From an uncultured Fibrobacterota bacterium (GTDB taxonomy: Bacteria; Fibrobacterota; Chitinivibrionia; Chitinivibrionales; FEN-1185), in contig CAVWBU010000032.1 of assembly GCA_963753345.1 (NCBI GenBank), forward strand, positions 128,001-192,000: a stretch of DNA of 64,000 bases, written 5' to 3'. The translations under genes and the position numbers were made by a program. The notes beneath the pieces were generated by a model. That model worked only from the letters and a program-made list of their open reading frames with translations. It was not told where the DNA came from and searched no databases. Position 1 is the stretch's first letter, and every line of letters starts with the position of its first letter. Below, piece after piece: positions 3,866-56,324 of this stretch.

Positions 3866-4022
3866 TTGGGCGTTCCCCTCCCCCTCGACAAAGCTCGGGG
3901 TCGGGTCGGTTCTCCTTCCGGTCTCGGCCTTCGGCCTCGGGCCGCCTCGGCCCTATGCCGCGTGGCGCGGCGGGTCCGGGCGGCATCCCACTTTGGCGGG
4001 ACCTCCAGTCGCCCCTAACGCG
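3866..4022 (-). repeat. Structured repeat family B, copy B1
   Basis: Minus strand reads GCGTTAGGGGCGACTGGAGG...CGAGACCGGAAGGAGAACCG...AACGCCCAA, matching the other B copies. Confidence 0.85.
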
Positions 4023-4123
4023 AAAACCAAAACAACAACTGGAAGCTGGGTTTTTTTTATTGCCGCGCGCAGTATACCAATGAAGTTGCAGAAAGCGTCA
4101 TTGCGAGTGCTTGGAATTCCAGG

Positions 4124-4308
4124 TGGCGCAAAGATGTAATTGACTTAACGGATTTCTTCTGCCGCGCGCTAGGCAGGACCGGAGTGGTCCCGCCGTAGCG
4201 GGATTGCCGGCCGACCCCTCGCCGAAGGCGACTAGGGGCGGACCGGCAACGAGGCGAACAGCCGAGCCCGGAGGGAGGGCCGCCGCTGCGAAGCAGCGGG
4301 GCGCCCGA
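4124..4308 (+). repeat. Structured repeat family B, copy B2
   Basis: GTAATTGACT..CTGCCGCGCGCTAGGCAGGACCGGAG...CGAGCCCGGAGGGAGGGCCG...GGCGCCCGA. Confidence 0.85.
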
Positions 4309-4331
4309 TTCTTTTTCTTTGAGCTATTTAT

Positions 4332-4817
4332 TTATCCTAAGTGATTAAACTCCGCATTCTCCAGAAATTCCTTCGGCTCGTTGACAAACTCAAGAAGATG
4401 CTCCACCAGGTGCTCGTGTTTCTGCTCTTCGACGATAAGAAACTGCAGCGCCTTCTTGTCGTCCTTCGAGGAGGCCTTGGAGAGCATGTCGGAGTACAGC
4501 GAGATGCTTTTGGTTTCCAATTCAAGCGCCTTGCCGTAGGCCTGGGCGTAATCGTAGACCGCCTGAGGGAGAACAAACTGCTCCGCGAGACCGGCAAAAA
4601 TGCGCTTCGCCTCCGCCGACGCGGTGCCCGGCTGGGGCGCCCCCGGGGCTTTTTTCTTTTGTTGCCATTCGTTAAAAAGGTCAAAATGCTTCTGCTCCTC
4701 CGAGGCCAAAACCGCAAAGATCCCGGCCAACGCCTTGAACGGAGATTCCGCCCCGAGCTTTTCGTAGTATGCTTTGCCTTCCAGTTCGATGCCCTTTGCG
4801 AGTTCAAGAGGGTCCAT
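4332..4817 (-). CDS. Rubrerythrin/ferritin-like di-iron protein
   Basis: Two E...EExxH pairs (EEQKHF, EEQKHE). Confidence 0.85.
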   Translation of the reverse strand: MDPLELAKGIELEGKAYYEKLGAESPFKALAGIFAVLASEEQKHFDLFNEWQQKKKAPGAPQPGTASAEAKRIFAGLAEQFVLPQAVYDYAQAYGKALELETKSISLYSDMLSKASSKDDKKALQFLIVEEQKHEHLVEHLLEFVNEPKEFLENAEFNHLG

Positions 4818-4829
4818 TGATGTTCCTTG

Positions 4830-5372
4830 CTATTGAAGAGTGATGGTTTTCTTTTCCACGTCGATGTGTTTGTCCTTGAAATTTGCGGTCGCGCCCGCGG
4901 CAAAAATGACCTTGACCTTCGCGCCCACGGAAAGTTTTACGTCCTTGGGGTCGCCGCTGTCAAGCGGAATGGTGAATGAGAACTCAGTCACCCCGTTGAC
5001 CTGTTTGCAGTCCGCGCTCAGGATATCGTTTTTTCCACCTATGGCCGTGTCCGGTTTGTGCGACACGTCGCTCACGCCGTATTCGTCGGACGAGACCGTC
5101 TTGCCGTTCACCAGCGCGCCCATGATCATGTTCGCGCCTTTCATCATGCTTGTGGGGTTGAAGCCGACGGCAACCCAGCCTTTTGTCGGGTACGTCACCT
5201 GAGCGCGCAGGTTGGCGCCGTCGACCTTGTATGCAAAAGTAAACTTGCCGGCCTTGACCGTTGTGTACGGTGTTTCCTTGGCCGTGGCGGCGGCCGAATC
5301 GCCGGCCGCGTTCGCGAGAAAAACAGCGGCGCAGATCAGCACAACGACCGATGCCGTTCGAGCAAGTGTCAT
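4830..5372 (-). CDS. Exported DOMON-domain protein
   Basis: Signal peptide; GWVAVGF..MKGANM motif and C-terminal His typical of heme-binding DOMON. Confidence 0.8.
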   Translation of the reverse strand: MTLARTASVVVLICAAVFLANAAGDSAAATAKETPYTTVKAGKFTFAYKVDGANLRAQVTYPTKGWVAVGFNPTSMMKGANMIMGALVNGKTVSSDEYGVSDVSHKPDTAIGGKNDILSADCKQVNGVTEFSFTIPLDSGDPKDVKLSVGAKVKVIFAAGATANFKDKHIDVEKKTITLQ

Positions 5373-5375
5373 GTG

Positions 5376-5609
5376 CTATTTCTTCTTCCTGAAAAAGGTT
5401 GATTTTACCCACGACCAGTTGAGAACAACATGGATGATGATGAGAGCGACAAAAGTATAGCCCGTGTACAGGTGCACCTGGCGGACCATGCCGAACGGAA
5501 TCGACTCCGCGAAAAGCGACATCATCACCCCCGTAACGGCCTGGGCAACGGCGACAACCGCCAAAACGGGATTGGTGATTCTGAGCGCGACAACCTTTGT
5601 GAAAGCCAC
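5376..5609 (-). CDS. Small 2-TM membrane protein (DUF4405-like, His-containing)
   Basis: GTG after AAGGAG; VH.YTG....LIIIHVVLNWSW pattern. Confidence 0.7.
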   Translation of the reverse strand: MAFTKVVALRITNPVLAVVAVAQAVTGVMMSLFAESIPFGMVRQVHLYTGYTFVALIIIHVVLNWSWVKSTFFRKKK

Positions 5610-5633
5610 AAGTTCTCCTTTCGCAAATCGGCC

Positions 5634-6194
5634 TTAAGCGCCCGGCGCGCCCGCGGCGGCCTTCATGGCGGCCTCGACGCCCTTGGAGAAATCGGTCGGG
5701 ACCGTGGTCATGCGGGCGGCCTTTTCCTTGTCGAGCAGGTACAGAGCGGCCGTGTCGGTCCCGATGAGCTTGAGCTGGGCAATGATATCGTTGTCGTTTT
5801 CCTCTTCTTCGGTCTGCTCGGTAACATACCACTGGAGAAACACTTCGGTGGCGTGATCTTTTTCCTTTACCGCCAGTTCCACCAGGTCGCCGATGCACTT
5901 GGTGATGAACTGTTCGTGGGCGAGCGTCTTGGTGAACATGTCCATGGGCGATTTGAACTCGGCCGGCGGCTCCTTGATGGAAAGCAGATTAATCTTGCCG
6001 CCCATCTTGATCACGTATTCGTAGAACTTCATGGCGTGCAGCATTTCCTCGTGGTACTGGACCATGAACCAGTTGGCGAACCCCTTGAGGCCCTTGAACG
6101 CGCAGTCGGCCGACATGGCCGAATACAGGTAAGCCGAGTACATTTCGTTGTTGATCTGGACGTTAAGCGCGTCTTCCATCTTCTTTGAGATCAT
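5634..6194 (-). CDS. ftnA: Non-heme ferritin
   Basis: QINNEMYSAYLY, EEMLHAMK, FLQWYVTEQTEEE; RBS AAAGGAGG. Confidence 0.92.
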   Translation of the reverse strand: MISKKMEDALNVQINNEMYSAYLYSAMSADCAFKGLKGFANWFMVQYHEEMLHAMKFYEYVIKMGGKINLLSIKEPPAEFKSPMDMFTKTLAHEQFITKCIGDLVELAVKEKDHATEVFLQWYVTEQTEEEENDNDIIAQLKLIGTDTAALYLLDKEKAARMTTVPTDFSKGVEAAMKAAAGAPGA

Positions 6195-6349
6195 GCTATC
6201 CTCCTTTGATAAGCTGTGTTGGCGACCGTCATGCGTGCATCTTGATGATTACGTACCATGCGGCATGAAGGTTATCTTTGCAACCTAACAAACATAATAA
6301 AATGCACGGCCGATTTCATCATAAATCACGGGCAGTGATGGTTTAAGGA

Positions 6350-6450
6350 TTGAAGACTGTCATTTCATTCCCTAAAGTATGGTAATAGCGCTTCGCGCTT
6401 TGCATTATGTCTATTGCCTCTTCTCCACAGCTTGCTGCGGGAGTCTTCAA
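6350..6450 (+). repeat. Hairpin-TTCAA element (IS200/IS605 end-like), copy P1
   Basis: TTGAAGAC...CTCCACAGCTTGCTGCGGGAGTCTTCAA; similar to 35115-35178 and 48052-48166. Confidence 0.6.
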
Positions 6451-6471
6451 CTATTTTCATCATAATTATTT

Positions 6472-7452
6472 ATGAGCCATGTCCCGTCATACCAAAGTCT
6501 CTCCGCTTCCGAATGGGACGAGCGCATTGCAGCGGCAGAAGCGCTTTTCTCGCCGTGCATGCTGTGCCCGCGCAGATGTAAAGCGGACAGAAAGGCAGGG
6601 AAGAAGGGGCGCTGCGGGGCGGGAAATGAGCTTGTCATTTCGAGCATATTCCCGCATCACGGCGAGGAGCCGCCCGTTTCCGGCACGAAAGGATCGGGCA
6701 CGGTGTTTTTCGCGCATTGCTCGCTCCGGTGCTGCTTCTGCCAGAATTTCCAGATATCGCAGGAGGGTGAGGGCGAACCGTATACCGAGCAAAGGCTTGC
6801 AGAAAGAATGCTCTGGCTCCAGGGGAGCGGCGTTCACAATATCAACCTTGTGACGCCCACACATTTTCTGCCGCATATTCTTCGCTCGCTCAAGATCGCG
6901 GCGGCCGAAGGCCTTTCGCTTCCCATTGTCTGGAACTCAAGCGGCTACGAGCTTGCAGAGGCGCTTGCCCTGCTCAGGGGAATCGTGGATGTTTACTTAC
7001 CGGACATGAAATACGGGTCGAACGAATCGTCACAGCGGTACTGCGGCGCGCCGGACTACGTGGAAATGAATCAGGCCGCCGTGCGCGAAATGTTCCGCCA
7101 GGTGGGGCCGCTCAAAACCGACAGGGAGGGGATTGCATACCGGGGAATGTGCATACGGCACCTGGTGTTGCCGGAAGGCTGGGCGCATTCCAGAAAGATC
7201 TTCGATTTTCTGCGCAGCGCGTTCGATCCGGCAGACATCACCCTGAGCCTCATGGCGCAGTATCGCCCCCTGTACAGGGTAAAGGAGTTCCCGGAACTTC
7301 TGCGCGGAATTTCACGGGAAGAATACGATGTGGTGCTTGCGGAAGCGGAAGACGCCGGGATCAATGTGTTTCCCCAGGAGCTTGCGCTCCTCGACGAAAG
7401 CTTTTGCATCGATTTTACAACAAGGAAAAGCGAGCCGTTGACTGGGAGGTGA
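6472..7452 (+). CDS. Radical SAM protein, PflX-like
   Basis: CMLCPRRC, HHGEEP, CSLRCCFCQN, HNINLVTPTH, YLPDMKY, RHLVLP. Confidence 0.9.
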   Translation: MSHVPSYQSLSASEWDERIAAAEALFSPCMLCPRRCKADRKAGKKGRCGAGNELVISSIFPHHGEEPPVSGTKGSGTVFFAHCSLRCCFCQNFQISQEGEGEPYTEQRLAERMLWLQGSGVHNINLVTPTHFLPHILRSLKIAAAEGLSLPIVWNSSGYELAEALALLRGIVDVYLPDMKYGSNESSQRYCGAPDYVEMNQAAVREMFRQVGPLKTDREGIAYRGMCIRHLVLPEGWAHSRKIFDFLRSAFDPADITLSLMAQYRPLYRVKEFPELLRGISREEYDVVLAEAEDAGINVFPQELALLDESFCIDFTTRKSEPLTGR

Positions 7453-7454
7453 AT

Positions 7455-7502
7455 GCGTTGGACCGTTCGAGTGTTGGTGCGTTAGAGTGTTCGAGCGTTA
7501 CC
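7455..7502. repeat. Degenerate 8-mer tandem repeat (about 6 x GYGTTNGA)
   Basis: gcgttgga ccgttcga gtgttggt gcgttaga gtgttcga gcgttacc. Confidence 0.6.
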
Positions 7503-7521
7503 TCATCAACCCATTAACCTG

Positions 7522-7701: not shown

Positions 7702-7787
7702 TGCTACAACCCGTGTGAGTGGTAAAAGAGAAAGTTATTCCTATTCAATAATATAATTCATGCTTTCATTTGTGAAGGGGGAATCGC

Positions 7788-8885: not shown

Positions 8886-8903
8886 ATAATAATAGAAATA
8901 CTC

Positions 8904-9126
8904 TGGTGGGGGCACCACCTGACGGTGGTTCCCCCTGGCCCCCGGCTTCCGCCTCGGCACCTATCACATCCATCCCAATACGGCGGCGATCCGGGGGCAC
9001 ACTCCCTCCTGCGAAGGTGCGCGCGAGTTCGTTCGCTTGACACTCGCGAAGCGTCGCACCTTCGCAACGCAACCGTTGCGGTATACCCCCTCCGCCTCCG
9101 GCACCTCCCCCTGAAACAGGGGGAGG
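8904..9126 (+). repeat. Structured repeat family A, copy A1
   Basis: GGGGGCACCAC..GTGGTTCCCCC ... GCGAAGGTGCG..CGCACCTTCGCAACGCAACCGTTGCG ... CCCCCTCCGCC..GGGGAGG; homologous to 29973 and 55868. Confidence 0.85.
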
Positions 9127-9301
9127 AAAAACCAATAATAAGTTCGGAAATTCTCTAAAGTCAATAATCATAAAAGAATCCTCTCCCATCTCCACACCAT
9201 GGACGACGTCGAAAACACTGGCGTTTGAAAAGGTCCCTGCCCCTAATTATTGCTTTTCCGCATCGATGATACTATATTTTTACCAGAAAGGGATCGATAC
9301 G

Positions 9302-9511
9302 ATGCTCAGTTCGACCATATCCTCCAAGTTCCAGGTCGCCATTCCCAAGCGGGTGAGGGAGCAGCTCTGCCTTAAGGCGGGAACAAGGGTCCACGTCATT
9401 CCCTACCGCGACCGGATCGAGTTCATTCCCGTGCGTCCAATGAAATCCATGAGGGGTTTCATCAAACGGAAGTTCAGCAGCGCGATCATCCGGGAAAAGG
9501 ACCGTGTGTGA
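9302..9511 (+). CDS. AbrB/MazE-type antitoxin (VapB)
   Basis: STISSKFQVAIPKRVREQL..G swapped-hairpin motif; overlaps toxin start. Confidence 0.85.
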   Translation: MLSSTISSKFQVAIPKRVREQLCLKAGTRVHVIPYRDRIEFIPVRPMKSMRGFIKRKFSSAIIREKDRV

Positions 9512-9894
9512 ACCTCGTCGATTCCTCGGGTTGGATCGAGTACTTTCTGGATCTGCCCGGTGCCGCGCATTTCGCCCGGCCCATCGAGGATGAAAAAGAG
9601 CTCCTTGTCCCTTCAGTCTGCATCTACGAGGTCTTTCGGAAACTGCTCACCGAGACGGACGAGACCACCGCGCTTCAGGCGGTGACCCAGATGCAGCTGG
9701 GCAGGGTGGTGGAGCTTGACGAGGTCCTTGCAATCAACGCCGCCCGCCTCGGGTACGATCTCAAGCTCCCTTTTGCGGACAGCATCATCCTTGCCGCGGC
9801 CTTGATGCACCGGGCCACCCTCTACACTATGGACGAGCACTTCAAGGACAAGCCCTGGGTCAAGTACTTCCCCCACAAATCCAAACTTTCCTAG
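9508..9894 (+). CDS. vapC: PIN-domain toxin VapC
   Basis: VDSSGWIE, YEV, ADSII, T.DEHF acidic PIN residues. Confidence 0.9.
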   Translation: MNLVDSSGWIEYFLDLPGAAHFARPIEDEKELLVPSVCIYEVFRKLLTETDETTALQAVTQMQLGRVVELDEVLAINAARLGYDLKLPFADSIILAAALMHRATLYTMDEHFKDKPWVKYFPHKSKLS

Positions 9895-9981: not shown

Positions 9982-10196
9982 TTGGCGCGAAAAAAAGTAA
10001 TTGACTGAATAGAATTCTGCTGCCGCGCGTTAGGGGCGACCGGAAGCCGCTCTGGAGAGCGGTGCCGCCCGGACCTGGCCGCGTACCCGCGGCATTGGGC
10101 CGTGACGGCCCGAGGGCTTGCCCGAGACTGGAGGGAGAACCGCCCCCAGTGTAGAGACGCCACACCGTGGCGTCTCTACACTGGGGGAACGCCCAA
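9982..10196 (+). repeat. Structured repeat family B, copy B3
   Basis: Near-identical to 46190-46403; terminal hairpin contains GTAGAGACGCCAC..GTGGCGTCTCTAC. Confidence 0.9.
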
Positions 10197-29496: not shown

Positions 29497-29961
29497 ATGC
29501 CGATGACGGCCAGGAAAACGCGCGCCCGCAGGCGCACGCGCGCCCCGTGGGACGAGTACTTCATGAAGATCGCGCAGCAGGTGGCCACGCGCTCGACCTG
29601 CGACCGCAAGAACGTGGGCGCGGTGATCGTGCGCGACAAGACCATCCTTTCGACCGGGTACAACGGCAGCGTGCGCGGTATGCCGCACTGCGACGACGTG
29701 GGCCACACCATGGAAAACGGCCACTGCATCGCCACGGTGCACGCCGAAGCCAATGCGATCATCCAGGCCGCCAAGAACGGCGTGGCGCTTGACGGAGCGG
29801 ACATCTACATAACGGCGTCGCCGTGCTGGCACTGCTTCAAGCTCATCGCCAACAGCGGGATAAAGAGGATTTTCTACCTCGAATTCTACCGCGACAATCA
29901 CGTCATTGAAGTAGCGGGACAGGCGGGAATAGAGTTAAGGCAAGTAGTAATTAATTCTTGA
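29497..29961 (+). CDS. dCMP deaminase / ComEB family
   Basis: WDEYFM, RSTC, TGYNG, HAEANA, PCWHC. Confidence 0.92.
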   Translation: MPMTARKTRARRRTRAPWDEYFMKIAQQVATRSTCDRKNVGAVIVRDKTILSTGYNGSVRGMPHCDDVGHTMENGHCIATVHAEANAIIQAAKNGVALDGADIYITASPCWHCFKLIANSGIKRIFYLEFYRDNHVIEVAGQAGIELRQVVINS

Positions 29962-29972
29962 ACCAATAATCT

Positions 29973-30171
29973 TGCTGGGGGCACCGCTTCGCGTTTCCCC
30001 CTCGCTTCGGCCTCCTCGGCCTTCGGCCTGCGGTGTCCTGCGCTACCCCCTCCAGCAAAGGGGCGCGCGAGGTCGCTCGCTTGACGCTCGCGAAGCGTCG
30101 CCCCTTCGCAACGCAACCGTTGCGGAACAACCCCCTCCGCCTTCGGCACCTCCCCCTTAACAAGGGGGAGG
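29973..30171 (+). repeat. Structured repeat family A, copy A2
   Basis: 3' two-thirds like A1/A5; 5' arm nearly identical to the reverse complement of 34425-34476. Confidence 0.85.
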
Positions 30172-30228
30172 ACATTCAATACTGCAGTTATTGATGGTTG
30201 GTGGTTTAAGAAATGGCGACGACCCTGA

Positions 30229-30398
30229 CTGCCGCGCGTTAGGGGCGACTGGAGGCCGCGCTGGAGCGCGGTGCCGCCTGACCACGGCCCGCAGGGCCAT
30301 TGTGGCAGGCGGCCCGAGGCCGAAGGCCGAGACCGGAAGGAGAACCGACCCCCAGTACAGTGGTGCATCCTGCACTACCGTACTGGGGAAACGCCCAA
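30229..30398 (+). repeat. Structured repeat family B, copy B4
   Basis: CTGCCGCGCGTTAGGGGCGACTGGAGG...CGAGACCGGAAGGAGAACCG...AACGCCCAA. Confidence 0.88.
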
Positions 30399-32909: not shown

Positions 32910-33054
32910 CAGGAGTAAAGACGGGACGGTGGCGGGTTCGACATAATCATCGATAATTTTTGGCATGGTGACGGGGAGCACCAACGAGTCGCACCGAGTG
33001 CGGGAAGTACCAATACTCTTCTTGCCTTCCCGGTTCTCATAATTCTATATTCAT

Positions 33055-33119
33055 TTTCGAATGATCAGGCGGCTGCCTTGCGCAGCGTAGCCGGGCCGGT
33101 ACAGCGGCAACGGACGAAC
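33055..33119 (+). ncRNA. NiCo (czcD) metal-sensing riboswitch aptamer
   Basis: TGATCAGGC-[GCTGC cttgc GCAGC]-GTAGCCGGGCC..CGGCAAC four-way-junction signature directly upstream of a CDF gene. Confidence 0.8.
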
Positions 33120-33120
33120 A

Positions 33121-33159
33121 GCTCCGTGGGACATAGAAACGTTCCGCGGGGCTTTTTTT
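33121..33159 (+). terminator. Riboswitch expression-platform terminator
   Basis: GCTCCGTGGGAC-atagaaac-GTTCCGCGGGGC-T7 between aptamer and RBS. Confidence 0.8.
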
Positions 33160-34073: not shown

Positions 34074-34259
34074 TTGGGCGCCCCGCCGCTTCGCGGCGGC
34101 GGCCCTCCTTCCAGGCTCGGCTGGTCAGCCTCGTTGCCGGACCGCTCCGAGTCGCCTGCGGCGAGGGGTCGGCCGGCAATTCGCTCCAGATCACCTTTCA
34201 GTCCGGCCTGGCGCGCGGCAGAAGAACTCCTATTAGGCAATTGCTTCTTCTCGCGCCAA
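34074..34259 (-). repeat. Structured repeat family B, copy B5
   Basis: Minus strand TTGGCGCG..CTGCCGCGCGCCAGG...CGAGCCTGGAAGGAGGGCCG...GGCGCCCAA; close to B2. Confidence 0.85.
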
Positions 34260-34359
34260 ACGGTGCTCCAAATACGCATACGTAAACGCGTTAGCGCGTC
34301 TAAGCGTATATGAGTCACCATCTCAACTCCTCAACTTTTCAACTATTCAACTCACTTTC

Positions 34360-34488
34360 TTGGTGCCCCCGCAGCCGAAGCTTCTTTCTTGCCAATCAAC
34401 TTGCTTGGGGGCTACCAACGAAGGGGTAGCGCAGGACACCGCAGGCCGAAGGCCGAGGAGGCCGGAGCGAGGGGGATACTTCCCCCGC
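34360..34488 (-). repeat. Structured repeat family A (subtype 2), copy A3
   Basis: Minus strand GGGGGAAGTATCCCCCTCGCT..CGCTACCCC.TCGT.GGTAGCC...GGCACC, matching 54225-54372. Confidence 0.8.
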
Positions 34489-34590
34489 ATCAATCGTCTT
34501 TGTATGCTAAAATCACCAAGACATGTCTAAATCGAAATATTTGCAATTATCCCCCCGTAATGAGTATACTTACTAATTGGAAAGAAAACC

Positions 34591-39770: not shown

Positions 39771-42700
39771 ATGCTCGAAAAACTCATTGAATGGTCGATT
39801 AAGAACAAGTTTCTGGTGATCATGCTCACCATCTTCGCGATCGGCGCCGGCGTTTGGGCGATTGTTACAACGCCGGTTGACGCGATCCCGGACTTGAGCG
39901 ACGTGCAGGTGATCGTCTATACCGAGTACGAGGGACAATCGCCGCGCATCGTTGAAGACCAGGTGACCTATCCGCTCACCACGTCTTTGCTGTCGGTTCC
40001 CGGTGCACGAGTAGTGCGAGGGTATTCGTTTTTCGGCTATTCGCTTGTCTACGTCATCTTCAAGGACGGCACCGACATCTACTGGGCGCGCAGCCGCGTG
40101 CTTGAGTACCTGAACTATGCCCAGAAACGTTTGCCCGCGGGAGTATTGCCCACGCTCGGGCCGGACGCCACCGGCGTGGGTTGGGTGTACGAGTATGCCT
40201 TGACCTCGCCATACACGATCGCTGCAGGAGCTGCGCTCGCTCCAGGACTGGTACCTGAAATATGGATTGTCAAGCATCGAGGGCGTCGCCGAGGTGGCGA
40301 GCATCGGCGGCTATGTCAAGCAGTACCAGGTGACCGTGGACCCGTCGAAGCTGCAGGCGTACGGCATTCCGGTCGGCGACATCGAGATGGCGATAAAGAA
40401 CGCCAACAGCGACGTGGGCGGCGAGGTGATCGAAATGGCCGAAATGGAGTTCATGATCCGCGGTCTCGGATATATAAAATCCATCGACGACATCAAAAAC
40501 ATCCCGGTCAAGACCGACATGCAGCGCGGCGTCGCCGTGCGCATCGGCGACATCGCCGATGTGGCCATCGGGCCCGAGATGCGGCGGGGGCTGGCCGATC
40601 TTGACGGAAAGGGAGAGGTCGCGGGCGGCATCGTGGTCATGCGGTTCGGCGAAAACGCCCAGAAGGTCATCAAGGCCGTGGAGAAGAAGCTCGAGGTGCT
40701 CAAAGCCGGGCATGCCGCCGGACGTGCAGATCGTGCCGACCTACAACCGCTCGGCGCTCATCGAGCGCGCCATCGCAAATCTGCGCGACAAGCTCTTCGA
40801 GGAAATCCTCATTGTCGCGCTCGTGTGCGCATTCTTCCTCTTTCACGCGAGAAGCGCGTTCGTGGCGGTATTTACCTTGCCCACGGCGATACTCATGGCC
40901 TTTGTTGTCATGCGGATGCAGGGACTCAATGCGAACATCATGTCGCTCGGCGGCATCGCGATCGCCATCGGCGCCATGGTGGACGCGGCAATCATCATGA
41001 TCGAAAACGCGCACAAGCACATCGAGGCCGAAAACGCGAAGCCGCCAGAGGAGCGGCTGCCGCATTGGCAGGTAATACTGCAGGCATCGAAGGAGGTGGG
41101 GCCGCCGCTGTTCTGGTCGCTCCTGGTGATCACGGTCTCGTTTATCCCGATCTTTACGCTCGAGGCGCAGGAAGGCCGGCTGTTCAAGCCGCTTGCCTTT
41201 ACAAAAACGTATTCCATGGCTGCGGCGGCGATACTTGCCGTCACCATCGTGCCGGTGCTCATGGGGTATTTTCGTGCGCGGAAAAATACGGCCCGAGCAC
41301 GCAACCCGCTCAACCGGTTTCTCATTTCGCTCTATCATCCGGTGGTCAAATTTGTGGTGCGGTATCCGAAATGGGTCATCGCGGCCGCAGTTGTCATCAT
41401 CGCCGTAAGCGTGGTTCCCTTCCTTAAACTCGGCTCCGAATTCATGCCGCCGCTTTACGAAGGCGATCTGCTCTACATGCCCACGACCCTTCCCGGCGTT
41501 TCCGATAACCAAGGCAAAAGAGATCCTGCAGCAGACCGACAAGATCATCGCGTCGTTTCCCGAAGTCAAACGCGTGTTCGGCAAGGCGGGCCGGGCCGAG
41601 ACCGCCACCGACCCGGCGGGCCTTGACATGCTGGAAACCATCATCATGCTCAAGCCCGAAAAAGAGTGGCCCAAAGGCATGACGCACGAAAAACTCGTGC
41701 AGCAGCTTGACGAGGCGATAAAATTTCCCGGCCTCACCAACGCCTGGACCATGCCGATCAAGACCCGCACCGACATGCTCTCCACCGGCATCAAGACCCC
41801 GGTCGGCATAAAAATCTCCGGGGCGAACCTTGACACGCTGGAAATGCTCGGCAAGGAGGTGGAGACCGCGGTGCGCGCGGTGCCGTACACGACCTCGGCG
41901 TTCGCCGAACGCGCCGTGGGCGGCAATTACCTCGATATCAAGATCGACCGGGTCAAGGCCGGACGCTACGGCCTTAACATTGGCGACATTCAGTCGGTCA
42001 TCTCAGACCGCGCTCGGCGGCATGAGCATCACCACCACCGTGGAAGGTCTGGAGCGGTATACGGTCAACCTTCGCTACAGCCGGGAACTGCGCGACAATA
42101 TCGAGGCGCTCAAGCGAGTGCTCGTCACCGGCAAGGGCGGCGGCGGTCAGCCGCCAGGCATGGGCGGCCAGCAATCCGCAATGGGCGGTCTGCAGGTGCC
42201 GCTCGGCCAGGTGGCGGACTTCGAAATCAACAAGGGGCCCATGGTCATCCGGAGCGAAGACAGCCGGCCCAACGCCTGGGTGTTTGTTGACATGCGGGGG
42301 ACCGACATGGGCAGCTACATTCGTCAAGCCCAGAAGGCGGTGGCTGCAAAGGTGAAGCTTCCCACGGGCTACAGCATCATCTGGAGCGGCGAATACGAAT
42401 TCATGCAGCGCAGCCAGAAGCGGCTTATGGTGGTCATTCCCATGACGCTGTTCATCATATTCATCATTCTATTCCTGAATACGAAGTCGCTTGTCAAAAC
42501 GGCAATCATCCTTCTGGCCGTTCCGTTTTCCCTTGTCGGCACCGTTTGGTTTTTGTATCTCCTCGGCTACAACATGAGCCTGGCCGTATGGGTGGGAATC
42601 ATCGCGCTTGCGGGGCTGACGCCGAGACCGGGGTGGTCATGCTCCTGTATCTCGATCAGGCATATGAGGACGCGAAAAAAATGGGCGCTGTGACGATATC

Positions 42701-42938
42701 CCGTCTCAAGGAGGCCATCGACCACGGCGCGGTGCGACGCGTGCGGCCGAAGATCATGACGGCGTCGGTGATCATCGCCGGTTTACTTCCGATCATGTGG
42801 AGCAACGGCACCGGCTCCGACGTGATGAAGCGGATCGCGGCGCCCATGGTGGGCGGCGTCATAACGTCGGTGCTGATGGAACTGCTGGTGTATCCGGCGA
42901 TTTATTTCCTGTGGAGAAAGCGGGGAATACGAAGCTAA
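39771..42938 (+). pseudogene. cusA: CusA/SilA heavy-metal RND efflux pump, full length but broken by about 7 frameshifts (sequence error or decay)
   Basis: Consecutive CusA segments ([57 protein letters not shown]) in alternating frames; shifts near 40211, 40709, 41270, 41301, 41502, 42003, 42617. Confidence 0.85.
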
Positions 42939-46189: not shown

Positions 46190-46403
46190 TTGGCGCGAAA
46201 CAGAGTAATTGACTAAATAGAATTCTGCTGCCGCGCGTTAGGGGCGACCGGAAGTCCCGCTAGAGTGGGATGCCGCCCGGACCCGGCCGCGTACCCGCGG
46301 CATTGGGCCGTGGCGGCCCGAGGGCTTGCCCGAGACTGGAGGGAGAACCGCCCCCAGTGTAGAGACGCCACACCGTGGCGTCTCTACACTGGGGGAACGC
46401 CCA
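46190..46403 (+). repeat. Structured repeat family B, copy B6
   Basis: Near-identical to B3 except a swapped first hairpin (GTCCCGC-TAGA-GTGGGAT vs GCCGCTC-TGGA-GAGCGGT). Confidence 0.9.
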
Positions 46404-46421
46404 GATCTTTTTCTTATTTCC

Positions 46422-49753: not shown

Positions 49754-51316
49754 ATGTTTAAGAATTTAATTATCTTATTGATCCCCACGGTATTCCTTTA
49801 TTCTCAGCAAAATACTGCCCCAACGATCGCAGTTAGCGACCTTGTCGGCCAAGGTGTTAATCAGAGCGAGGCGACCGTCGTAAGTGAACAGCTTCGGACG
49901 GAATTGCAAAAGACAGGACATTTTCGCATTATAGAGCGAAACCAAATGCAGGAAATTCTTAAGGAACAGGGTTTTCAGCAAACAGGCTGCACAACTGATG
50001 CTTGCGCTGTAGAGGTGGGGCAATTGCTTGGCGTGAAAAACATCGTCGTGGGATCCCTTGGAATTGCGGGGAGCTACACCGTCCTGACCGTAAGGATTCT
50101 TGATGTTCAGACTGGCGAGGTACTTGTTACTGAAACAGGGAACGCCAAAGGTGGTATTGATGAAATGATTGAAAAGGGAATACGCGAAGTAGCCGGAAAA
50201 TTGGTCGTTGATTTGTCAAGGATCATGTGCCAAGCAATAGTCGATGCGGCAAAGAACGGGAATCTCAAAGAAAAAAGTCTCTTGCAGCGAGGCGCGGATG
50301 TGAATTCGAAGGCAAACAGTGGCTGGACTCCGCTGCATTGCGCTGCAAAATATGGGCATGAGGCCATAGTGAGTTTTCTGATTAGCAAAGGCGCAAATGT
50401 AAATGCGAAGATCAGCGGTGGCTGGACTCCGCTGCATGAGGCTGCTGAAGCTGGCTATATAGAAGCAGTCAAGATTCTTTTGAACAACGGTGCAGATGTG
50501 AATTCAGTGAGTTATCTTGTTGACGAAGGCGCGGATGTGAATTCGAAGGCAAACAGTGGCTGGACTCCGCTGCATTGTGCTTCAAAATATGGGCATGAGG
50601 CCATAGTGAGTTACCTGATTAGCAAAGGCTCGAATGTGAATGCCAAGACCAATAATGGCTGGACTCCGCTGCATGAGGCTGCTGAAGCTGGCTACACGGA
50701 AGTAGTCAAGATTCTGTTGAACAATGGTGCAGATGTGAATTCAAAAGCCAACGGGGGCGAAACTGCGTTGCATTGTGCCTCCGTTTTTAGACATGAAACC
50801 GTAGTGAATTATTTAATTAGTAAAGGCGCAAATGTGAATGTAAAAGACATTACTGGAGCAACTCCGTTGTATTATGCCGCCATAAATGGGAATGAGGTCA
50901 TAGTGAATTATCTGGTCATCAAAGGCGCGGATGTGAATTCGAAGGCAAACAATGGCTGGACTCCGCTGCATTGTGCTGCCCACAACGGACAGGAGGGTGT
51001 AGTAAAGTTCCTGATCACCAACGGTGCAAATGTGAATTCGAAGGCAGACAGTGGCTGGATTCCGCTGCATTTAGCTGCTGACAGTGGCCACGCAGAAATA
51101 GTCAAAATCCTGTTGAACAAGGGTGCTGATGTGAATGCGAAGACAAGCAATGGCTTTTCCGCTTTGGACGTGGCTGCGTCTCGCGGGCATTCGGATGTGG
51201 TGGAGATACTCAAGGAATACAGGGCAAAGCATCGGCTTGTAGACATTCATCTTACTCCCGAAGAGATAAAATCGGCGGGATTTGAAAAGAAACCCGACAC
51301 CACGCATGACCGATAG
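49754..51316 (+). CDS. Exported CsgG-like domain + ankyrin-repeat protein
   Basis: IIERNQMQEILKEQGFQQTGC; about 10 GADVN...GWTPLH repeats. Confidence 0.9.
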   Translation: MFKNLIILLIPTVFLYSQQNTAPTIAVSDLVGQGVNQSEATVVSEQLRTELQKTGHFRIIERNQMQEILKEQGFQQTGCTTDACAVEVGQLLGVKNIVVGSLGIAGSYTVLTVRILDVQTGEVLVTETGNAKGGIDEMIEKGIREVAGKLVVDLSRIMCQAIVDAAKNGNLKEKSLLQRGADVNSKANSGWTPLHCAAKYGHEAIVSFLISKGANVNAKISGGWTPLHEAAEAGYIEAVKILLNNGADVNSVSYLVDEGADVNSKANSGWTPLHCASKYGHEAIVSYLISKGSNVNAKTNNGWTPLHEAAEAGYTEVVKILLNNGADVNSKANGGETALHCASVFRHETVVNYLISKGANVNVKDITGATPLYYAAINGNEVIVNYLVIKGADVNSKANNGWTPLHCAAHNGQEGVVKFLITNGANVNSKADSGWIPLHLAADSGHAEIVKILLNKGADVNAKTSNGFSALDVAASRGHSDVVEILKEYRAKHRLVDIHLTPEEIKSAGFEKKPDTTHDR

Positions 51317-51987: not shown

Positions 51988-52020
51988 AGAAAAGGGTGAG
52001 AACGGTTCTCACCCTTTTCT
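51988..52020. terminator. Perfect inverted repeat / terminator after bS22
   Basis: AGAAAAGGGTGAGAAC-G-GTTCTCACCCTTTTCT. Confidence 0.75.
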
Positions 52021-52036
52021 ATTTTACAGACCAGGT

Positions 52037-54199
52037 ATGGAATCCATCCAGGGAATCGTCACCGACATAACATTCCGCAACGAGGAGAACGGATTCACCG
52101 TGCTCAAACTTGCGGAATCGGAATCCTCGCCCGCGGTGCTGTGCGTGGGCGCGATGCCCGCGGTGGAGCCGGGGGAGACGCTCAAGGCAACGGGCGAGTT
52201 CCGGCTCCACGCGCGGTTCGGGAAACAATTCGCGGTCTCGGCGTTCGAGACCGTGCGGCCGCTCACCCTCGCGGGGATCGCCGCGCTGCTCGGCAGCGGC
52301 CTCATCGAGAACATCGGCGAGGTGCGTGCCAAGAAAATCATCGACGTGTTCGGCCTCAAGACGCTTGACATACTGGACAATGAGCCGGCCCGCCTCCTGG
52401 AGGTGCGCGGCATCGGGAAGAAGACGCTGGAGAAGATCGTTGAGGCGTGGCAACGCAAGCGGCGCATCAGGGAGCTCATGGTGTTTCTGCAGGAATGCGC
52501 GATCACGGTCAACATGGCGTCTAAGATTTATTCCGCGTACGGAGACTCGGCGCAAGAGAAAATATCGCAGAACCCCTACTGCCTCATCGACGACGTGTGG
52601 GGCGTGGGGTTCAAGAAGGCCGACGCCATTGCCCAGAAACTCGGGTTTGCGCACGATTCGTTCAAGCGGATACGCGCCGGTCTCACCTATGTGATGTCGG
52701 AGGCCGCCGGAAACGGCCATGTCTATCTTCCCTCAACCGGGCTTGTTTCGAGCGCCGCGGCGATCCTCGAAGTCCCTGAGGACAAGACGCTGTTTTCGCT
52801 CGACCACATGGTGAAGGAAGGCGCGCTGGCTGCCGACGAAAGCCGCATCTACCTGCCGCACCTTTACGGAGCGGAATGCGCGGTCGCCGCGCTGCTGTCG
52901 GGCCTGGCGGGGGAGCGCTGCGGGCCGCTTGCGAAATACGACGCGCGCTATGTTTCGTCGTGGCTGGAATCCTACTCGGCCAAGAACCGCTGGCACGCCG
53001 ACCCGAAGCAGAAGGAGGCGGTGGCCGCCGCGCTTCTGCACGGCGCAAGCCTGCTCACGGGCGGGCCCGGCACGGGAAAGACCACCACGCTGCAGGTTAT
53101 CGTCTCGTTTTTGCGAGAGCATAACATACGCGTCGCACTCGCCGCGCCCACGGGCAGGGCCGCGCAGCGCATGGGAAGCATCGCGGGCCTTCGCGCCAGC
53201 ACCATCCACCGGATGCTCGAATACCGTCCGGGCGGCCAGGGGTACCGTTTTGCGCGGGACGCAAGCAACCCCGTCGAGGCCGACATGATTATCGTGGACG
53301 AAACCTCCATGATCGACATCGTGCTCATGCGGAGCCTGCTTGCGGCCGTGCGTCCCGGCACCTCGGTGCTGTTCGTGGGGGACGAGAACCAGCTTCCGTC
53401 AATAGGGCCGGGCACCGTGCTCGCCGACATGATCGCCTCGGCCGCCCTTCCGCACGTGCGGCTCACCACGGTGTTCAGGCAGGCGGCGCAGAGCGGCATC
53501 GTTACCGCGGCGCACGACATCATGGCCGGCAGGGTCCCGGTGCTTCGCAACGAGAAGGAGGGGAACATCTTCTTTGTAAACGAAGAGGACCCGGACCGCT
53601 GCTGCGCCGCGCTGGTTGACCTGGTGGTGAAACGCCTGCCGGCCCGGTACGGGTTCGATCCCGCGGCTGGCATCCAGGTGGTGTCGCCCATCCACAACGG
53701 CGTGCTGGGGACGCGGAACCTCAACGCCCTGCTCAAGGCCGCGCTCAATCCGGGCAAACGGTTCGTGCGGCGCGGCGACGCCGAGTTTTCCGCGGGCGAC
53801 AAGGTGATGCAGGTGAAGAACGACTACGACCGCGGCGTGTTCAACGGCGACATCGGGTTCGTGGCCGACATTGTTGACGAAAGCGACATTGTTGTCGATT
53901 TCGACGGCCAGAAGGTGCGGTATGAACCGCGCCACCTCGACGAGCTGGTCCACGCATACTGCATCAGCATCCACAAGAGTCAGGGCTGCGAGTTCCCGGC
54001 CGTGGTGATCCCTATTGCGACCCAGCACTTCGTGATGCTCCAGCGAAATCTTATTTATACCGCCATCACGCGCGCGAGGAAACTGTGTGTGCTCGTGGGC
54101 ATGCCCCGGGCGCTTGCCATTGCGGTGAAAAATAACGCGACCGTGGAGAGGTATTCGAGGTTGAGGGAGAGAATAGTTGACAAGATAAAAGTGTTATGA
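52037..54199 (+). CDS. recD2: RecD2 (RecD/TraA family) helicase
   Basis: NEENGFTV, NPY.L, TGGPGTGKT, APTGRAA, VDETSM, SIHKSQG.EF, YTAITRA. Confidence 0.93.
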   Translation: MESIQGIVTDITFRNEENGFTVLKLAESESSPAVLCVGAMPAVEPGETLKATGEFRLHARFGKQFAVSAFETVRPLTLAGIAALLGSGLIENIGEVRAKKIIDVFGLKTLDILDNEPARLLEVRGIGKKTLEKIVEAWQRKRRIRELMVFLQECAITVNMASKIYSAYGDSAQEKISQNPYCLIDDVWGVGFKKADAIAQKLGFAHDSFKRIRAGLTYVMSEAAGNGHVYLPSTGLVSSAAAILEVPEDKTLFSLDHMVKEGALAADESRIYLPHLYGAECAVAALLSGLAGERCGPLAKYDARYVSSWLESYSAKNRWHADPKQKEAVAAALLHGASLLTGGPGTGKTTTLQVIVSFLREHNIRVALAAPTGRAAQRMGSIAGLRASTIHRMLEYRPGGQGYRFARDASNPVEADMIIVDETSMIDIVLMRSLLAAVRPGTSVLFVGDENQLPSIGPGTVLADMIASAALPHVRLTTVFRQAAQSGIVTAAHDIMAGRVPVLRNEKEGNIFFVNEEDPDRCCAALVDLVVKRLPARYGFDPAAGIQVVSPIHNGVLGTRNLNALLKAALNPGKRFVRRGDAEFSAGDKVMQVKNDYDRGVFNGDIGFVADIVDESDIVVDFDGQKVRYEPRHLDELVHAYCISIHKSQGCEFPAVVIPIATQHFVMLQRNLIYTAITRARKLCVLVGMPRALAIAVKNNATVERYSRLRERIVDKIKVL

Positions 54200-54224
54200 A
54201 ATTATTATGAAAAGGTTATGGCAG

Positions 54225-54372
54225 GTGGGGGAAGTATCCCCCTCGCTTCGGCCCGGCCGCGCCGCTTTACAAACCAGCATCCCTGAGGCGCGACCGGTCC
54301 TCCGCTACCCCCTCGTGGGTAGCCGCCTTGACAAAGCAGTTGCAAGACCATGCATTGTTGTGGCGGCACCCA
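54225..54372 (+). repeat. Structured repeat family A (subtype 2), copy A4
   Basis: GGGGGAAGTATCCCCCTCGCTTCGG...CGCTACCCCCTCGTGGGTAGCCGCC...GGCGGCACCCA. Confidence 0.8.
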
Positions 54373-54406
54373 CAAAGAGCAGTTGAAAAGTTGAATAGTT
54401 GAAACG

Positions 54407-54596
54407 GAGAAGAAGTAATTGACTTAATAGGATTCTTCTGCCGCTGCGTTAGGTGGACCGAAGGGTGAGCTAGAGCGAATTACCGCCTGATCCCCAGCCG
54501 AAGGCGATTGGGACAGGCGGCAACGAGGCGAACAGCCGAGCCCGCAGGGAGACCGGCCCGACCCCGAGCGAAGTCGAGGGGGAGGGCAACGCCCAA
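54407..54596 (+). repeat. Structured repeat family B, copy B7
   Basis: GTAATTGACT..GCGTTAGGTGGACCG...CGAGGCGAACAGCCGAGCCCG...AACGCCCAA. Confidence 0.85.
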
Positions 54597-54626
54597 GTTT
54601 CTATATTTCTATCGGAATGGTATTTC

Positions 54627-54911
54627 ATGAAACCTCAACCCGACCCCGATATCATCCTCCTTAATAACGCTCTTGACAAGTTGGGAGTTGAGATCCGCCA
54701 CGGAACATTCGACGGCGACGGCGGTCTGGTGAAAATGGAGGATCGGTATATACTATTTTTACGTACCGGCGTCCTGCAGCAACGGGAGAAGGACCTGATG
54801 CTTGACGCGATAAGAAGAATGGGGCCGCTGGCCGTGCATGTGCCCCCGCGCGTGCGCGAGCTTCTGGGCGAAGACCAATGGGAAAGCACCACAGGAGAAA
54901 ATAATGGCTAA
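54627..54911 (+). CDS. Hypothetical protein
   Basis: 94-aa ORF overlapping the start of the next gene. Confidence 0.6.
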   Translation: MKPQPDPDIILLNNALDKLGVEIRHGTFDGDGGLVKMEDRYILFLRTGVLQQREKDLMLDAIRRMGPLAVHVPPRVRELLGEDQWESTTGENNG

Positions 54912-55851
54912 AGTAACAATCGGCGTGATCGGCGCGGGCGTGCTGGGATCGTACCATATCCAGAAGTGCCTCAAGAACAAAGACGTGGACTTTGCGGGGT
55001 TCCACGACTCGTCGGCCAATCGCCGCGCCGAGGTTGCGAAAAAACTCGGCGCGCGGCCATGGGACGCCATGGAAGGCCTTGTTGACGTGTGCGACGCCGT
55101 CATCGTGGCGACGCCCTCGTCGACCCACGCGGCCGTGGCGCTGGCCTGCATGGGGAAGAAGAAACACGTGCTCGTGGAGAAGCCGCTCGCGCCGAGCTTT
55201 GCCGAGGGGAAGGCTCTTGTCGAGGCCGCGCGCGAGCGGGGCGTGGTGCTGCATGTGGGGCACTCGGAGGCCTTCAATTCCTCTTTTGTGAAGCTTCTGT
55301 CGCTGGCTCCGACGCCCAAGTTCATCGAGATCCACAGGCTCGCGCAGTACTCGCCGCGCGGCACCGACGTGCCGGTAATCCTCGACCTCATGGTGCACGA
55401 CGTGCATCTCGTGCTGCGCCTGCTTTCGGAGGAGCCGCGCTACGACGCCATCGCGGCCACGGGCGTGCCGGTGGTGTCGCAGGACATCGACATCGCCAAC
55501 GTGCGCATCCCGTTCCCCTCGGGCTGCGTGGTGAACTGCACCGCCAGCCGCATATCCGCCAAGAAGATGCGCAAGCTGCGGCTGTTCGCGCGCGACAACT
55601 ACTATTCCGTCGATCTGGACAAAGAGGAAATCGAGCACTACTTCCTCACCGGCGCGGCGCAGGCGGGCCGGCCCCTTCCCGTTGAATTCTCCAAAGACAA
55701 GACCAGACACACGGACGCGCTCGAGGCCGAGCTCGCCGCATTCGTCGCCGCAATAGCAGGCGCGCCGGATCACAAGGGCGTGTCCGGCGAAGAGGCGCTC
55801 AAAGTGCTCAAAGTGACGGATACGATAATGGGACTACTAAAAAATCAATAA
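54904..55851 (+). CDS. Gfo/Idh/MocA oxidoreductase (GnnA-like)
   Basis: GVIGAG.LG..H, VEKP, VGH.E.FN, RGTDV.VILDLM.HD, TASRIS. Confidence 0.88.
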   Translation: MAKVTIGVIGAGVLGSYHIQKCLKNKDVDFAGFHDSSANRRAEVAKKLGARPWDAMEGLVDVCDAVIVATPSSTHAAVALACMGKKKHVLVEKPLAPSFAEGKALVEAARERGVVLHVGHSEAFNSSFVKLLSLAPTPKFIEIHRLAQYSPRGTDVPVILDLMVHDVHLVLRLLSEEPRYDAIAATGVPVVSQDIDIANVRIPFPSGCVVNCTASRISAKKMRKLRLFARDNYYSVDLDKEEIEHYFLTGAAQAGRPLPVEFSKDKTRHTDALEAELAAFVAAIAGAPDHKGVSGEEALKVLKVTDTIMGLLKNQ

Positions 55852-55867
55852 AGATTCCTGCAATGCT

Positions 55868-56077
55868 TGGTGGGGACACCACTTCGTGGTTTCCCCTGGG
55901 GTGCAGCTTCCTCCCGCCGGAAATCGGCGGGAGGTGATCTGCACCCACACCCTTTCCTGCGAAGGTGCGCGACAAGGTCACTCGCTTGACGCTCGCGAGT
56001 CGTCGCACCTTCGCAACGCAACCTCGGCGGAAGATCCCCCTCTGCCTTCGGCATCTCCCCCTTGTTAAGGGGGAGAT
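55868..56077 (+). repeat. Structured repeat family A, copy A5
   Basis: GGGGACACCAC.TCGTGGTTTCCCC...GCGAAGGTGCG..CGCACCTTCGCAACGCAACC...CCCCCTCTGCC..GGGGAGA. Confidence 0.85.
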
Positions 56078-56133
56078 AATTCCATTTCAAACATCTTTTC
56101 GCCAAGCAGAAATGTGGATGCGGCACTATCCCT

Positions 56134-56324
56134 CTGCCCGCGCGCCAGGCAGGACCGGAGGGTGAGCCAGAGCGAATTGTCACTCCGTTCCCCAAGGAAT
56201 AGTAATAGCGCTTCGCGCTTCATTATTATGTCACTTGCCTTGTGCCGGCCGAGGCCGGAGATTCAACCCGCCCAACAGGAAGGGCGGGTTATAGGCCGCC
56301 GCCGCAAAGCGGCGGGGCGCCCAA
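56134..56324 (+). repeat. Structured repeat family B, copy B8 (centre replaced by a module also present at 6358-6420)
   Basis: GCGCCAGGCAGGACCGGAGGGTGAGCCAGAGCGAATT...GGCCGCCGCCGCAAAGCGGCGGGGCGCCCAA. Confidence 0.75.

Follow-up and report, generated by a model that had tools for sequence, protein, structure and literature searches.

The window analyzed here, a 64,000-nt stretch of contig CAVWBU010000032.1 (GCA_963753345.1), belongs to a 4.52-Mb, 94%-complete Chitinivibrionales-type genome and carries eight copies of family B, an intergenic repeat of ~150 nt that lies mostly in back-to-back pairs. The original prediction placed eight copies at 3866..56324, and all were found at that span. They score 33.6–94.5 bits with a covariance model, and the next-best match in the window scores 13.5 bits; the training lineage of the model took in several of B1–B8. 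The first two copies form a divergent B-B doublet, in which B1 (3866..4021, minus strand, 89.4 bits), a left arm of the GCGTT type, and B2 (4166..4308, plus strand, 71.6 bits), the right arm, flank a 144-bp spacer (4022..4165) that ends in the common leader. Farther along, a family A arm of the A2 type (8892..9129, an HMM match on the minus strand, its outward, GNA-loop strand) is followed by two small ORFs called on the plus strand (9266..9894) and then by B3 (10027..10196, plus strand, covariance model), whose terminal hairpin is a GTAG-type palindrome. The second ORF resembles the VapC toxin (NF047959, 27 bits against a cut-off of 80), and the two ORFs form a putative toxin-antitoxin pair, likely carried as cargo.

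Family A arms also partner B4 (30236..30398, plus strand, 85.3 bits; A2-type arm at 29961..30174, minus strand), the GCGCC-type B5 (34074..34214, minus strand, 76.5 bits; arm at 34310..34489 on the plus, outward strand), B7 (54446..54596, plus strand, 94.5 bits; arm, spacer, and leader at 54224..54432, minus strand), and B8 (56142..56324, plus strand, 33.6 bits; A2-type arm at 55860..56079, minus strand), a GCGCC-type copy with a module inserted in its upper junction. B6 (46235..46404, plus strand, covariance model) is 92% identical to B3 across 237 nt, leader included, and a search for its partner arm found none.

Extrapolation from the window had implied hundreds of copies per genome, and nhmmer indeed returned 413 matches in the 4.52 Mb, 360 of them full length, for ~400 copies overall. 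Pairs within 400 bp are divergent in 251 cases, convergent in 1, and tandem in 7, and a divergent partner (family A or a second B) was found for 276 of 398 B copies (69%). The family A arms carry GNA loops on the outward strand 57 times versus 0 on the other (n = 277), and 132 of the 277 have the same GNA/GNA core as B. The arms stand back to back: the strands that fold are opposite DNA strands, and the 3′ ends point outward. B copies occupy convergent gene gaps in 105 of 345 cases, compared with 385 of 2,499 gaps. Clustering of the neighbors of the 360 full-length copies revealed no enriched enzyme family, mobile-enzyme families included. No target-site duplication was obvious by eye in 45 A-B doublets, and no B copy among the matches listed is split by an inserted gene.

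Read from the 5′ end, each copy begins with P1 (GCGYY/RRCGC), followed by a three-way junction from which P2 and a variable terminal hairpin branch. Above the P1 junction come a tandem GA/GA, a 2-bp stem, a GNA/GNA loop, and a junction bearing three hairpins, and CCA lies directly 3′ of P1. The predicted covariation of the outer stem was confirmed in 297 copies chosen without pairing as a criterion, with GCGTT/AACGC in 185 and GCGCC/GGCGC in 84. The strongest MI-APC pairs are base pairs in a set of 267 distinct copies whose median pairwise identity is 69%; Y22-R111 is TA in 142 and CG in 116, and the outer stem is TA in 183 and CG in 83. A set of 46 copies drawn from several genomes has two-sided changes at 23 of its 39 pairs, a level reached in 0 of 500 shuffles, and pairing amounts to 86%, compared with 35–50% in slid controls. 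This covariation shows that the stems of family B are real, and the claim of selection on structure is supported, the structure being kept by compensatory change.

Finer points of the predicted anatomy needed revision. The four quoted first-hairpin sequences are exact, but B5, B7, and B8 have a different one; the terminal motif is not CCAA but CCA plus any base (CCAA 199, CCAG 77, CCAT 61; n = 360); and most of the “unpaired purine-rich junctions” turn out to be internal loops, symmetric GA/GA and GNA/GNA, in which we infer non-canonical pairs. GTAG palindromes occur in 28 of 360 copies, only as inserts of the terminal hairpin. The leader 5′ of the copies has the layout GGCGC, then TTGAC 26 nt ahead of the stem, then TGCCGC.

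The proposed check for a known Rfam family left the window copies without any match: no family appeared across the window at gathering or at E values up to 10, Acido-Lenti-1 had no window match, and Flavo-1 (RF01705, gathering 42 bits) matched neither the window nor the whole genome. Rfam likewise returned nothing for 8 deltaproteobacterial and 14 distant loci. Elsewhere, RF01705 gives 13 matches, 6 of them above gathering, all in one of 151 Fibrobacterota genomes. Most of the 13 extend into the frame of family B, GCGTTAGG ... CCCGACCC-hairpin-GGGGAACGCCCA, and the family B model assigns 12–32 bits to 12 of them. The published Flavo-1 alignment (Weinberg et al. 2010, PMC2864571) has ends identical to the outer frame of family B. 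Since this frame, which the RF01705 model leaves out, is common to true Flavo-1 matches and the original alignment, we regard B as a Flavo-1-type element, and sequence comparison makes the kinship very probable. The suggested resemblance to Flavo-1 thus stands as kinship, together with the larger size and the extra branches, but not as an RF01705 score.

Specifically, both elements have a GCGYYAGG start, P2, a GNA/GNA internal loop, a CCGACC junction, a terminal hairpin, and an RRCGCCCA end. The Rfam consensus and the B core also agree in the basal stem, the GNA/GNA loop, and the GA junction on the purine-rich strand, and both elements are intergenic with many copies per genome. Flavo-1 combines two GNA/GNA loops with a single long apical stem. 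B contains just one such loop, plus a tandem GA, and its apical stem has given way to a four-way junction with three hairpins; B is also GC-rich and twice as long.

Family B is present in a Deltaproteobacteria-labelled genome too, and its occurrence and copy number are patchy among genomes. Among five sister genomes, one that is 99% complete lacks any B match, which indicates that B is dispensable. About 15 of 21 non-Fibrobacterota loci from a genome-wide pattern scan were discarded as chance matches, as was the single B match on viral contigs, which falls within a coding region. Separately, weak matches to the Flavo-1 frame lie on two 7-kb scaffolds of the phage set, both unverified.

The original reading of family B as an RNA is not supported as put, since the loop census favors DNA. 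The first-hairpin loop is C-NRNA-G, and the fold strands of 344 distinct copies contain 333 cGNAg and 37 cAAAg triloops, compared with 21 and 3 on the other strand; the same copies have 10 GNRA and 0 cUUCGg loops. According to PMC13037366, GNA mini-hairpins are far stabler as DNA than as RNA; examples are found at the G4 primase origin, in RSF1010 ssiA, and in the N4 single-stranded DNA (ssDNA) promoters. The DNA-type triloops, the few GNRA loops, and the lack of cUUCGg therefore favor ssDNA over RNA, and family B probably acts as ssDNA. A terminator-like control is itself low in RNA tetraloops (2 GNRA, 1 UUCG; n = 65), so the census is one without a strong RNA control. Nearest-neighbor folding gives no clear choice of DNA versus RNA or of strand, and the fold strand is on the G-rich strand in 149 of 246 cases, a weak bias confounded by gene orientation.

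These data bear directly on the reading of B as a structured non-coding RNA, which we consider decidedly unlikely. In that reading, transcription of the spacer or read-through would yield the RNA, as in the proposal for TwoAYGGAY RNAs, and a protein such as CsrA would perhaps bind it. The strong covariation, including G-U/G-T wobble, the CCA end, the folding z-scores of B1–B8 (−2.3 to −8.1), and the TTGAC found in the leader of 202 of 360 copies would all fit an RNA, as would a record of Flavo-1 in Leptospira long-read transcript data. However, TTGAC has no properly spaced −10 box, and a sigma-70 promoter in the leader was rejected, the position concerned being CGCGCG. In addition, the triloops are GNA rather than GNRA or UUCG, the loop base is free among GGA, GAA, GCA, and GTA, unlike in a CsrA site, and neighboring mRNAs reach the non-folding strand first. 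In F. psychrophilum, Flavo-1 matches are found in sense and antisense orientation as well as outside transcribed regions (PMC9723704). TwoAYGGAY also lends some support to an RNA: as described in bioRxiv 10.64898/2026.09.22.753630, it shares with B multiple copies, multiple hairpins, divergent doublets (68% in TwoAYGGAY), short upstream repeats, and REP association. Compared by description only, B differs in its phylum and in having no AYGGAY loops, and the Rfam search gave no match to RF01731 (TwoAYGGAY).

Plasmids hold relatives of the Flavo-1 frame, with a query for the frame matching 80 Bacteroidales plasmid records; family B itself has no convincing plasmid match. With 24–27 bits under the B model, the plasmid copies are Flavo-1-like rather than B; those tested against Rfam score under gathering, and the copies fall in three or four related groups. 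Of 8 plasmid sites examined, 5 have the fold on the template strand 5′ of an ardC, ssb/pcfK, or JAB gene, a fit judged from neighboring genes; the other 3 sites are without these genes. Frpo/ssi signals share that layout (PMC11541004).

At the level of individual sites, comparison with sister species shows that 15 of 21 syntenic sites keep B and 4 of 21 are empty, these 4 being too diverged to show element ends. The occupants of shared sites are no more alike than random B copies: a cassette from about −260 to +30 differs, and the flanks past +30 are orthologous. An older 3′ end is stacked behind 18 of 360 copies, compared with 1 of 720 control windows. From these comparisons, we hold with high confidence that occupants are rewritten faster than their flanks. 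Sites that endure from species to species while changing the sequence they hold point to an active copy-exchange process.

Such turnover would also be expected if the doublets were selfish REPIN-like elements, ssDNA substrates for the swapping or copying of arms by a putative dedicated recombinase or nuclease, with the insertion sequence IS1182 a mere passenger-carrying parasite. The differing cassettes within orthologous flanks, the stacked 3′ ends, the empty sites, and the patchy distribution are all consistent with this reading, as are the divergent doublets and the intergenic, gene-3′-end bias. REP/BIME and RAYT-associated REPIN elements are intergenic, number hundreds of copies, and form inverted doublets of mosaic modules; like B, they also show gene-3′-end bias and are targeted by particular IS elements. 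B differs in its 150-nt multi-junction fold, its outward 3′ ends, and the lack of a linked RAYT. Moreover, no Y1/RAYT transposase or reverse transcriptase was found in this 94%-complete genome, B is at 0 of 12 Y1 loci from three relatives (incomplete assemblies), and the neighbor clustering gave no candidate enzyme family. Retention at 15 of 21 sites, some with flank identity of only 71–86%, further suggests host selection on position. Altogether, we rate a selfish REPIN-like nature as rather unlikely.

One IS1182 clade bears B inside its inverted repeats. In a full element (L151), B lies between the stop codon and the right end, and at a sister-species locus (L145), the order B-transposase remnant-B is found between IS ends; seven further IS1182 loci have no B, and viral contigs hold no relative of the transposase. 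The family is characterized by a DDE_Tnp_1 plus DDE_Tnp_1_6 transposase, short terminal repeats, and hairpin-loop insertion with a short duplication, and here the clade has targeted hairpin loops within A arms; a 4-bp duplication accompanies one element. The IS end is kept by 23 of 111 GCGCC copies (controls 0–1) and 1 of 248 GCGTT copies, that is, at 24 of 359 copies overall (~6%), and is absent at all eight window copies. The transposase C-terminal motif is retained upstream of two B copies in this genome. The statement that the repeats are not decaying MITEs is thus supported in that structure is kept, but not supported insofar as it implies that they are unrelated to transposon remnants.

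The opposite extreme, in which B is a subterminal structure serving IS1182 transposition and all copies are decaying IS-derived miniature elements, draws on L151, L145, and the two retained transposase motifs, and we find it very unlikely. A single clade has B within its ends, B is missing from most IS1182 elements examined, and most B copies have no IS end, with just 1 in 248 among the GCGTT type. Compensatory change keeps the structure rather than letting it decay, and at the loci read there is no IS1182 context around plasmid Flavo-1-frame copies or the Deltaproteobacteria-labelled B. An integron origin, with B or the B-B pair as an attC/attI-type site of the resident IntI, is largely refuted and highly improbable. 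GTTAGG fits the R′ box, and an A-B doublet comes immediately after the integron integrase of this genome (TIGR02249, 454 bits). However, the GTT is variable (a third of copies have GCC, and GTG, GCG, and GTC occur elsewhere) and stands ahead of AAC, the reverse of the folded attC order, and among 7 other IntI loci A or B lies beside only the orthologous one. Without the conserved AAC ... GTT R box order, and with dispersed copies in place of arrayed cassettes, attC identity was rejected.

The explanation that we tentatively favor, at somewhat less than even confidence, is that B is a four-way-branched relative of Flavo-1 that folds as ssDNA and serves as a landing site for priming, with occupants rewritten by recombination. 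Folding likely involves one strand, as ssDNA, and the folded element would likely be a landing site at which host primase or polymerase begins synthesis. Since the folded strands are opposite with their 3′ ends outward, synthesis from exposed templates would run inward across the doublet. The IS1182 clade carrying B inserts in hairpin loops of resident arms, as shown for A arms, and deletion between old and new copies would then replace the occupant, with an IS end and a 3′ stub of the old copy remaining; relics of this type are observed. Recombination among copies, partly IS1182-driven, likely keeps changing the occupant of each site.

By analogy, ssi, Frpo, G4, and N4 signals are folded ssDNA with GNA mini-hairpins, as B probably is, and the genes beside 5 of 8 plasmid sites suggest that the Flavo-1-frame relatives may lie ahead of leading-region genes. 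RSF1010 ssiA and ssiB are paired signals on opposite strands. Signals of the ssi/Frpo type are simpler than B and occur once or a few times per replicon, Frpo has −35/−10 boxes in its stem whereas B does not, and the literature listings surveyed showed no precedent for hundreds of priming sites on one chromosome. A role of B in priming or as an ssDNA promoter is putative, possible but doubtful. The broader claim, that Flavo-1 and B are together widespread folded-ssDNA priming signals rather than RNAs, with paired chromosomal copies priming both strands, plasmids using them, and IS1182 homing rewriting the occupants, we regard as unlikely.

The literature surveyed, with subscription papers mostly outside its scope, contains nothing that treats Flavo-1 as DNA or ties it to IS1182. 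Among bacterial “sRNA” annotations, Flavo-1 is one of the most abundant, and it has lacked a function since 2010. Family B extends the Flavo-1 frame, brings it to Fibrobacterota as well as deltaproteobacterial lineages, and offers specific grounds for testing it as DNA. It also presents two testable oddities: repeat sites that are kept across species while the resident sequence is swapped, and an insertion sequence that bears a structure of the very class whose partner arms it targets.

All eight copies of family B, the folded repeat of about 150 bases that the original prediction placed between positions 3866 and 56324 of the window, were found there as described. A profile built from these eight gave 413 matches in the 4.52-Mb, 94%-complete genome, with the 5' anchor in 384 and full length in 360 (median 152 nt), and just 5 of the 360 full-length copies overlap a gene called by our purpose-written script. 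The outer part of the fold consists of P1, followed by CCA, and a three-way junction at which P2 and a terminal hairpin that varies between copies branch off. The inner part consists of tandem GA/GA, a 2-bp stem, a 3x3 GNA/GNA loop, and an upper junction of three hairpins, one of which is closed by CGAG/CGAG. Across the genome, 53 of the 360 copies contain an inserted 27-nt module (GACCCTTGGAAG...), with several junction points serving as insertion sites.

The covariation claimed from the sequence holds on this larger set: for 267 of 344 distinct copies (length 130-172 nt, common inserts absent), the top MI-APC column pairs are base pairs. Among 297 copies chosen with no pairing requirement, the outer stem reads GCGTT/AACGC 185 times and GCGCC/GGCGC 84 times, and other taxa add GCGTG/CACGC and GGGTG/CACCC. 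In 46 copies from several genomes, from which the 39-pair structure was itself drawn, two-sided changes occur at 23 of the 39 named pairs, a number reached by 0 of 500 shuffles in a test that is inflated by relatedness of the copies, and the named pairs form in 86% of cases vs 35-50% in slid controls. Family B is a real, strongly structured repeat. Outer-stem type and junction type are associated with a Cramer V of 0.10; since module variants are linked only in part, the copies are mosaics.

The proposed likeness to Flavo-1 (Rfam RF01705) held for the frame, which is common to RF01705 places and the published alignment, but failed on Rfam score and apex. Specifically, an Rfam search of family B gave no match, whereas RF01705 matches 13 places in one Fibrobacterota genome. 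Most of these extend into a B-type start, CCCGACCC junction, terminal hairpin, and GGGGAACGCCCA end, and 12 of the 13 score 12-32 bits with the B covariance model. In the portion of the original authors' paper available to us, their Flavo-1 alignment has B-type ends too (PMC2864571), and minimal forms of 100-120 nt, present in other Fibrobacterota, make a bridge between Flavo-1 and B. Given the common frame, the failed Rfam score, and the other apex, family B is best taken as a novel, larger Flavo-1-type element, outside RF01705 by threshold. Outside Bacteroidota, small Paraclostridium plasmids carry a 62-bit Rfam Flavo-1 match (locus L175, 3004-3080) that lacks the B outer frame.

Sister genomes with family B are labelled Fibrobacterota or Chitinivibrionales. 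An exact core pattern was matched in 4 of the 5 other genus members, and a search of 35 further relatives gave none. Covariance-model searches, in which only about 21 candidates per genome were scored, found relatives in 23 of 151 genomes of the phylum, in 1 of 151 genomes of the phylum holding a Deltaproteobacteria-labelled genome with 12 copies, and in 2 of 151 genomes of a third sample.

Copies of B (B arms) often stand back to back with arms of the second folded family, A, or with another B. The 398 B and 317 A arms form 251 divergent, 7 tandem, and 1 convergent neighbor pairs at distances of up to 400 bp; a partner arm is present for 276 of the 398 B arms, and B-B spacers are mostly 121-125 bp. 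Other repeat families have left remnants in the doublet spacers. The back-to-back layout is found in more than one phylum, since several B copies of the Deltaproteobacteria-labelled genome (loci L104, L132, and L139) come with a different partner module of their own on the upstream side. The GNA/GNA core of B is also found in 132 of 277 A arms, whose GNA triloops number 57 on the outward strand vs 0 on the other. B copies are enriched in gaps between convergent genes (105/345 vs 385/2499), with a median of 25 bp from the B end to the facing stop codon. In doublet behavior, the arms resemble TwoAYGGAY elements, as far as the accessible part of their description goes (bioRxiv 10.64898/2026.09.22.753630). 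That family B is a REPIN-like substrate is possible, though we consider it doubtful: neither a Y1 transposase nor a reverse transcriptase was found in the 94%-complete genome, and B is absent from all 12 Y1 loci examined from relatives.

Elsewhere in the window, a NiCo riboswitch (33051-33136, + strand; 49.8 bits, above gathering) lies directly upstream of a cation diffusion facilitator gene. A CusA/CzcA-type efflux gene in a metal-efflux cluster (39771-42938, +) is split into several pieces in differing frames, through either a broken gene or an assembly error. An ankyrin-repeat gene (49754-51316, +) has 99-bp units and an internal 217-bp duplication. Two tRNAs (56461-56534 and 58610-58682), a tyrosine recombinase adjoining the second (58773-59951), and, some 3.4 kb beyond, a partial match to a tRNA (61995-62050) are possibly a small integrated element.

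An integron integrase precedes an A-B doublet at locus L012 (3735-5030; G000:C18:30734-32029, in the window's genome). An integron-site reading was rejected, since among seven other integrase loci only the orthologous one has the doublet and GTT is not conserved. Arms of family A or B are also found close to two more integrases, which have no IntI insertion. The sole enzyme physically linked to B is the IS1182 transposase. At locus L151 (G133:C380), the left repeat is followed by a 469-aa transposase, a B homolog (43.7 bits), and the right repeat, and the element lies within an A-like hairpin loop, accompanied by a 4-bp duplication; at locus L145 of a sister species (G004:C34), a transposase remnant is flanked by B on both sides, again inside the IS ends. 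In the window's genome, an IS1182 end lies 3' of 23 of the 111 copies of GCGCC type and of 1 of the 248 of GCGTT type (0-1 in controls), and the transposase C-terminal motif lies upstream of two copies. Seven other IS1182 loci, including the genome's own, have no B, and the IS1182 end is found at 0 of the 8 window copies. That family B is purely an IS relic is improbable.

Syntenic flanks were found in the window's genome for 21 of 45 B copies taken from sister genomes; at these sites, B is present on the same strand in 15 cases and a different arm in 2, and 4 are empty. Across 13 scorable pairs, the orthologous copy ranks 39-315 of 344 (median 240), i.e., orthologous occupants are no more alike than random B copies, even with flanks 88-93% identical. 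DNA 31-200 nt downstream of B ranks first in nearly all orthologous pairs, which is not true of the core, the leader, or the greater part of the spacer. An older 3'-end stub lies within 100 nt downstream of 18 of 360 copies vs 1 of 720 control windows. Incoming copies therefore probably land in, or convert, resident ones; IS1182 insertion and then deletion between copies would leave relics with the IS end, and recombination among about 400 homologous folds may account for the remaining replacement.

The fold strand of the 344 distinct copies carries 333 C-GNA-G triloops (all four bases occurring at N), 37 C-AAA-G, 10 GNRA, and 0 cUUCGg, vs 21, 3, 2, and 4 on the opposite strand. According to the accessible part of a review (PMC13037366), GNA/AAA-type mini-hairpins are far more stable as DNA than as RNA, bind SSB poorly, and are known at the G4 primase origin, RSF1010 ssiA, and N4 ssDNA promoters. 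In the portion seen of a Flavobacterium psychrophilum study (PMC9723704), Flavo-1 matches lie sense, antisense, or outside transcribed regions. The leader TTGAC lies 26 nt 5' of P1 in 162 of the 202 copies having it, and these leaders have no -10 box. Against folding as DNA count energy models that do not separate DNA from RNA, a terminator-like control also poor in RNA tetraloops, and Leptospira long-read RNA data in which, as far as the available part goes, Flavo-1 is among the regions listed as seen. Altogether, family B is unlikely to be an RNA and is likely a folded ssDNA signal.

The ardC, pcfK, and JAB genes are markers of plasmid leading regions. Used as query, the Flavo-1-frame copy that Bacteroides plasmid p5482 contributes to the published Flavo-1 alignment matches 80 Bacteroidales plasmid records. 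At five of eight sites examined, the fold lies on the template strand upstream of ardC, of pcfK/pcfJ/ssb, or of a JAB gene; the three other, related sites have no such gene arrangement beside it. Frpo/ssi structures allow leading-region genes to be transcribed off the transferred strand, according to the part available of PMC11541004. We tentatively suggest that the most likely role of the family B ssDNA signal would be in priming or ssDNA transcription.
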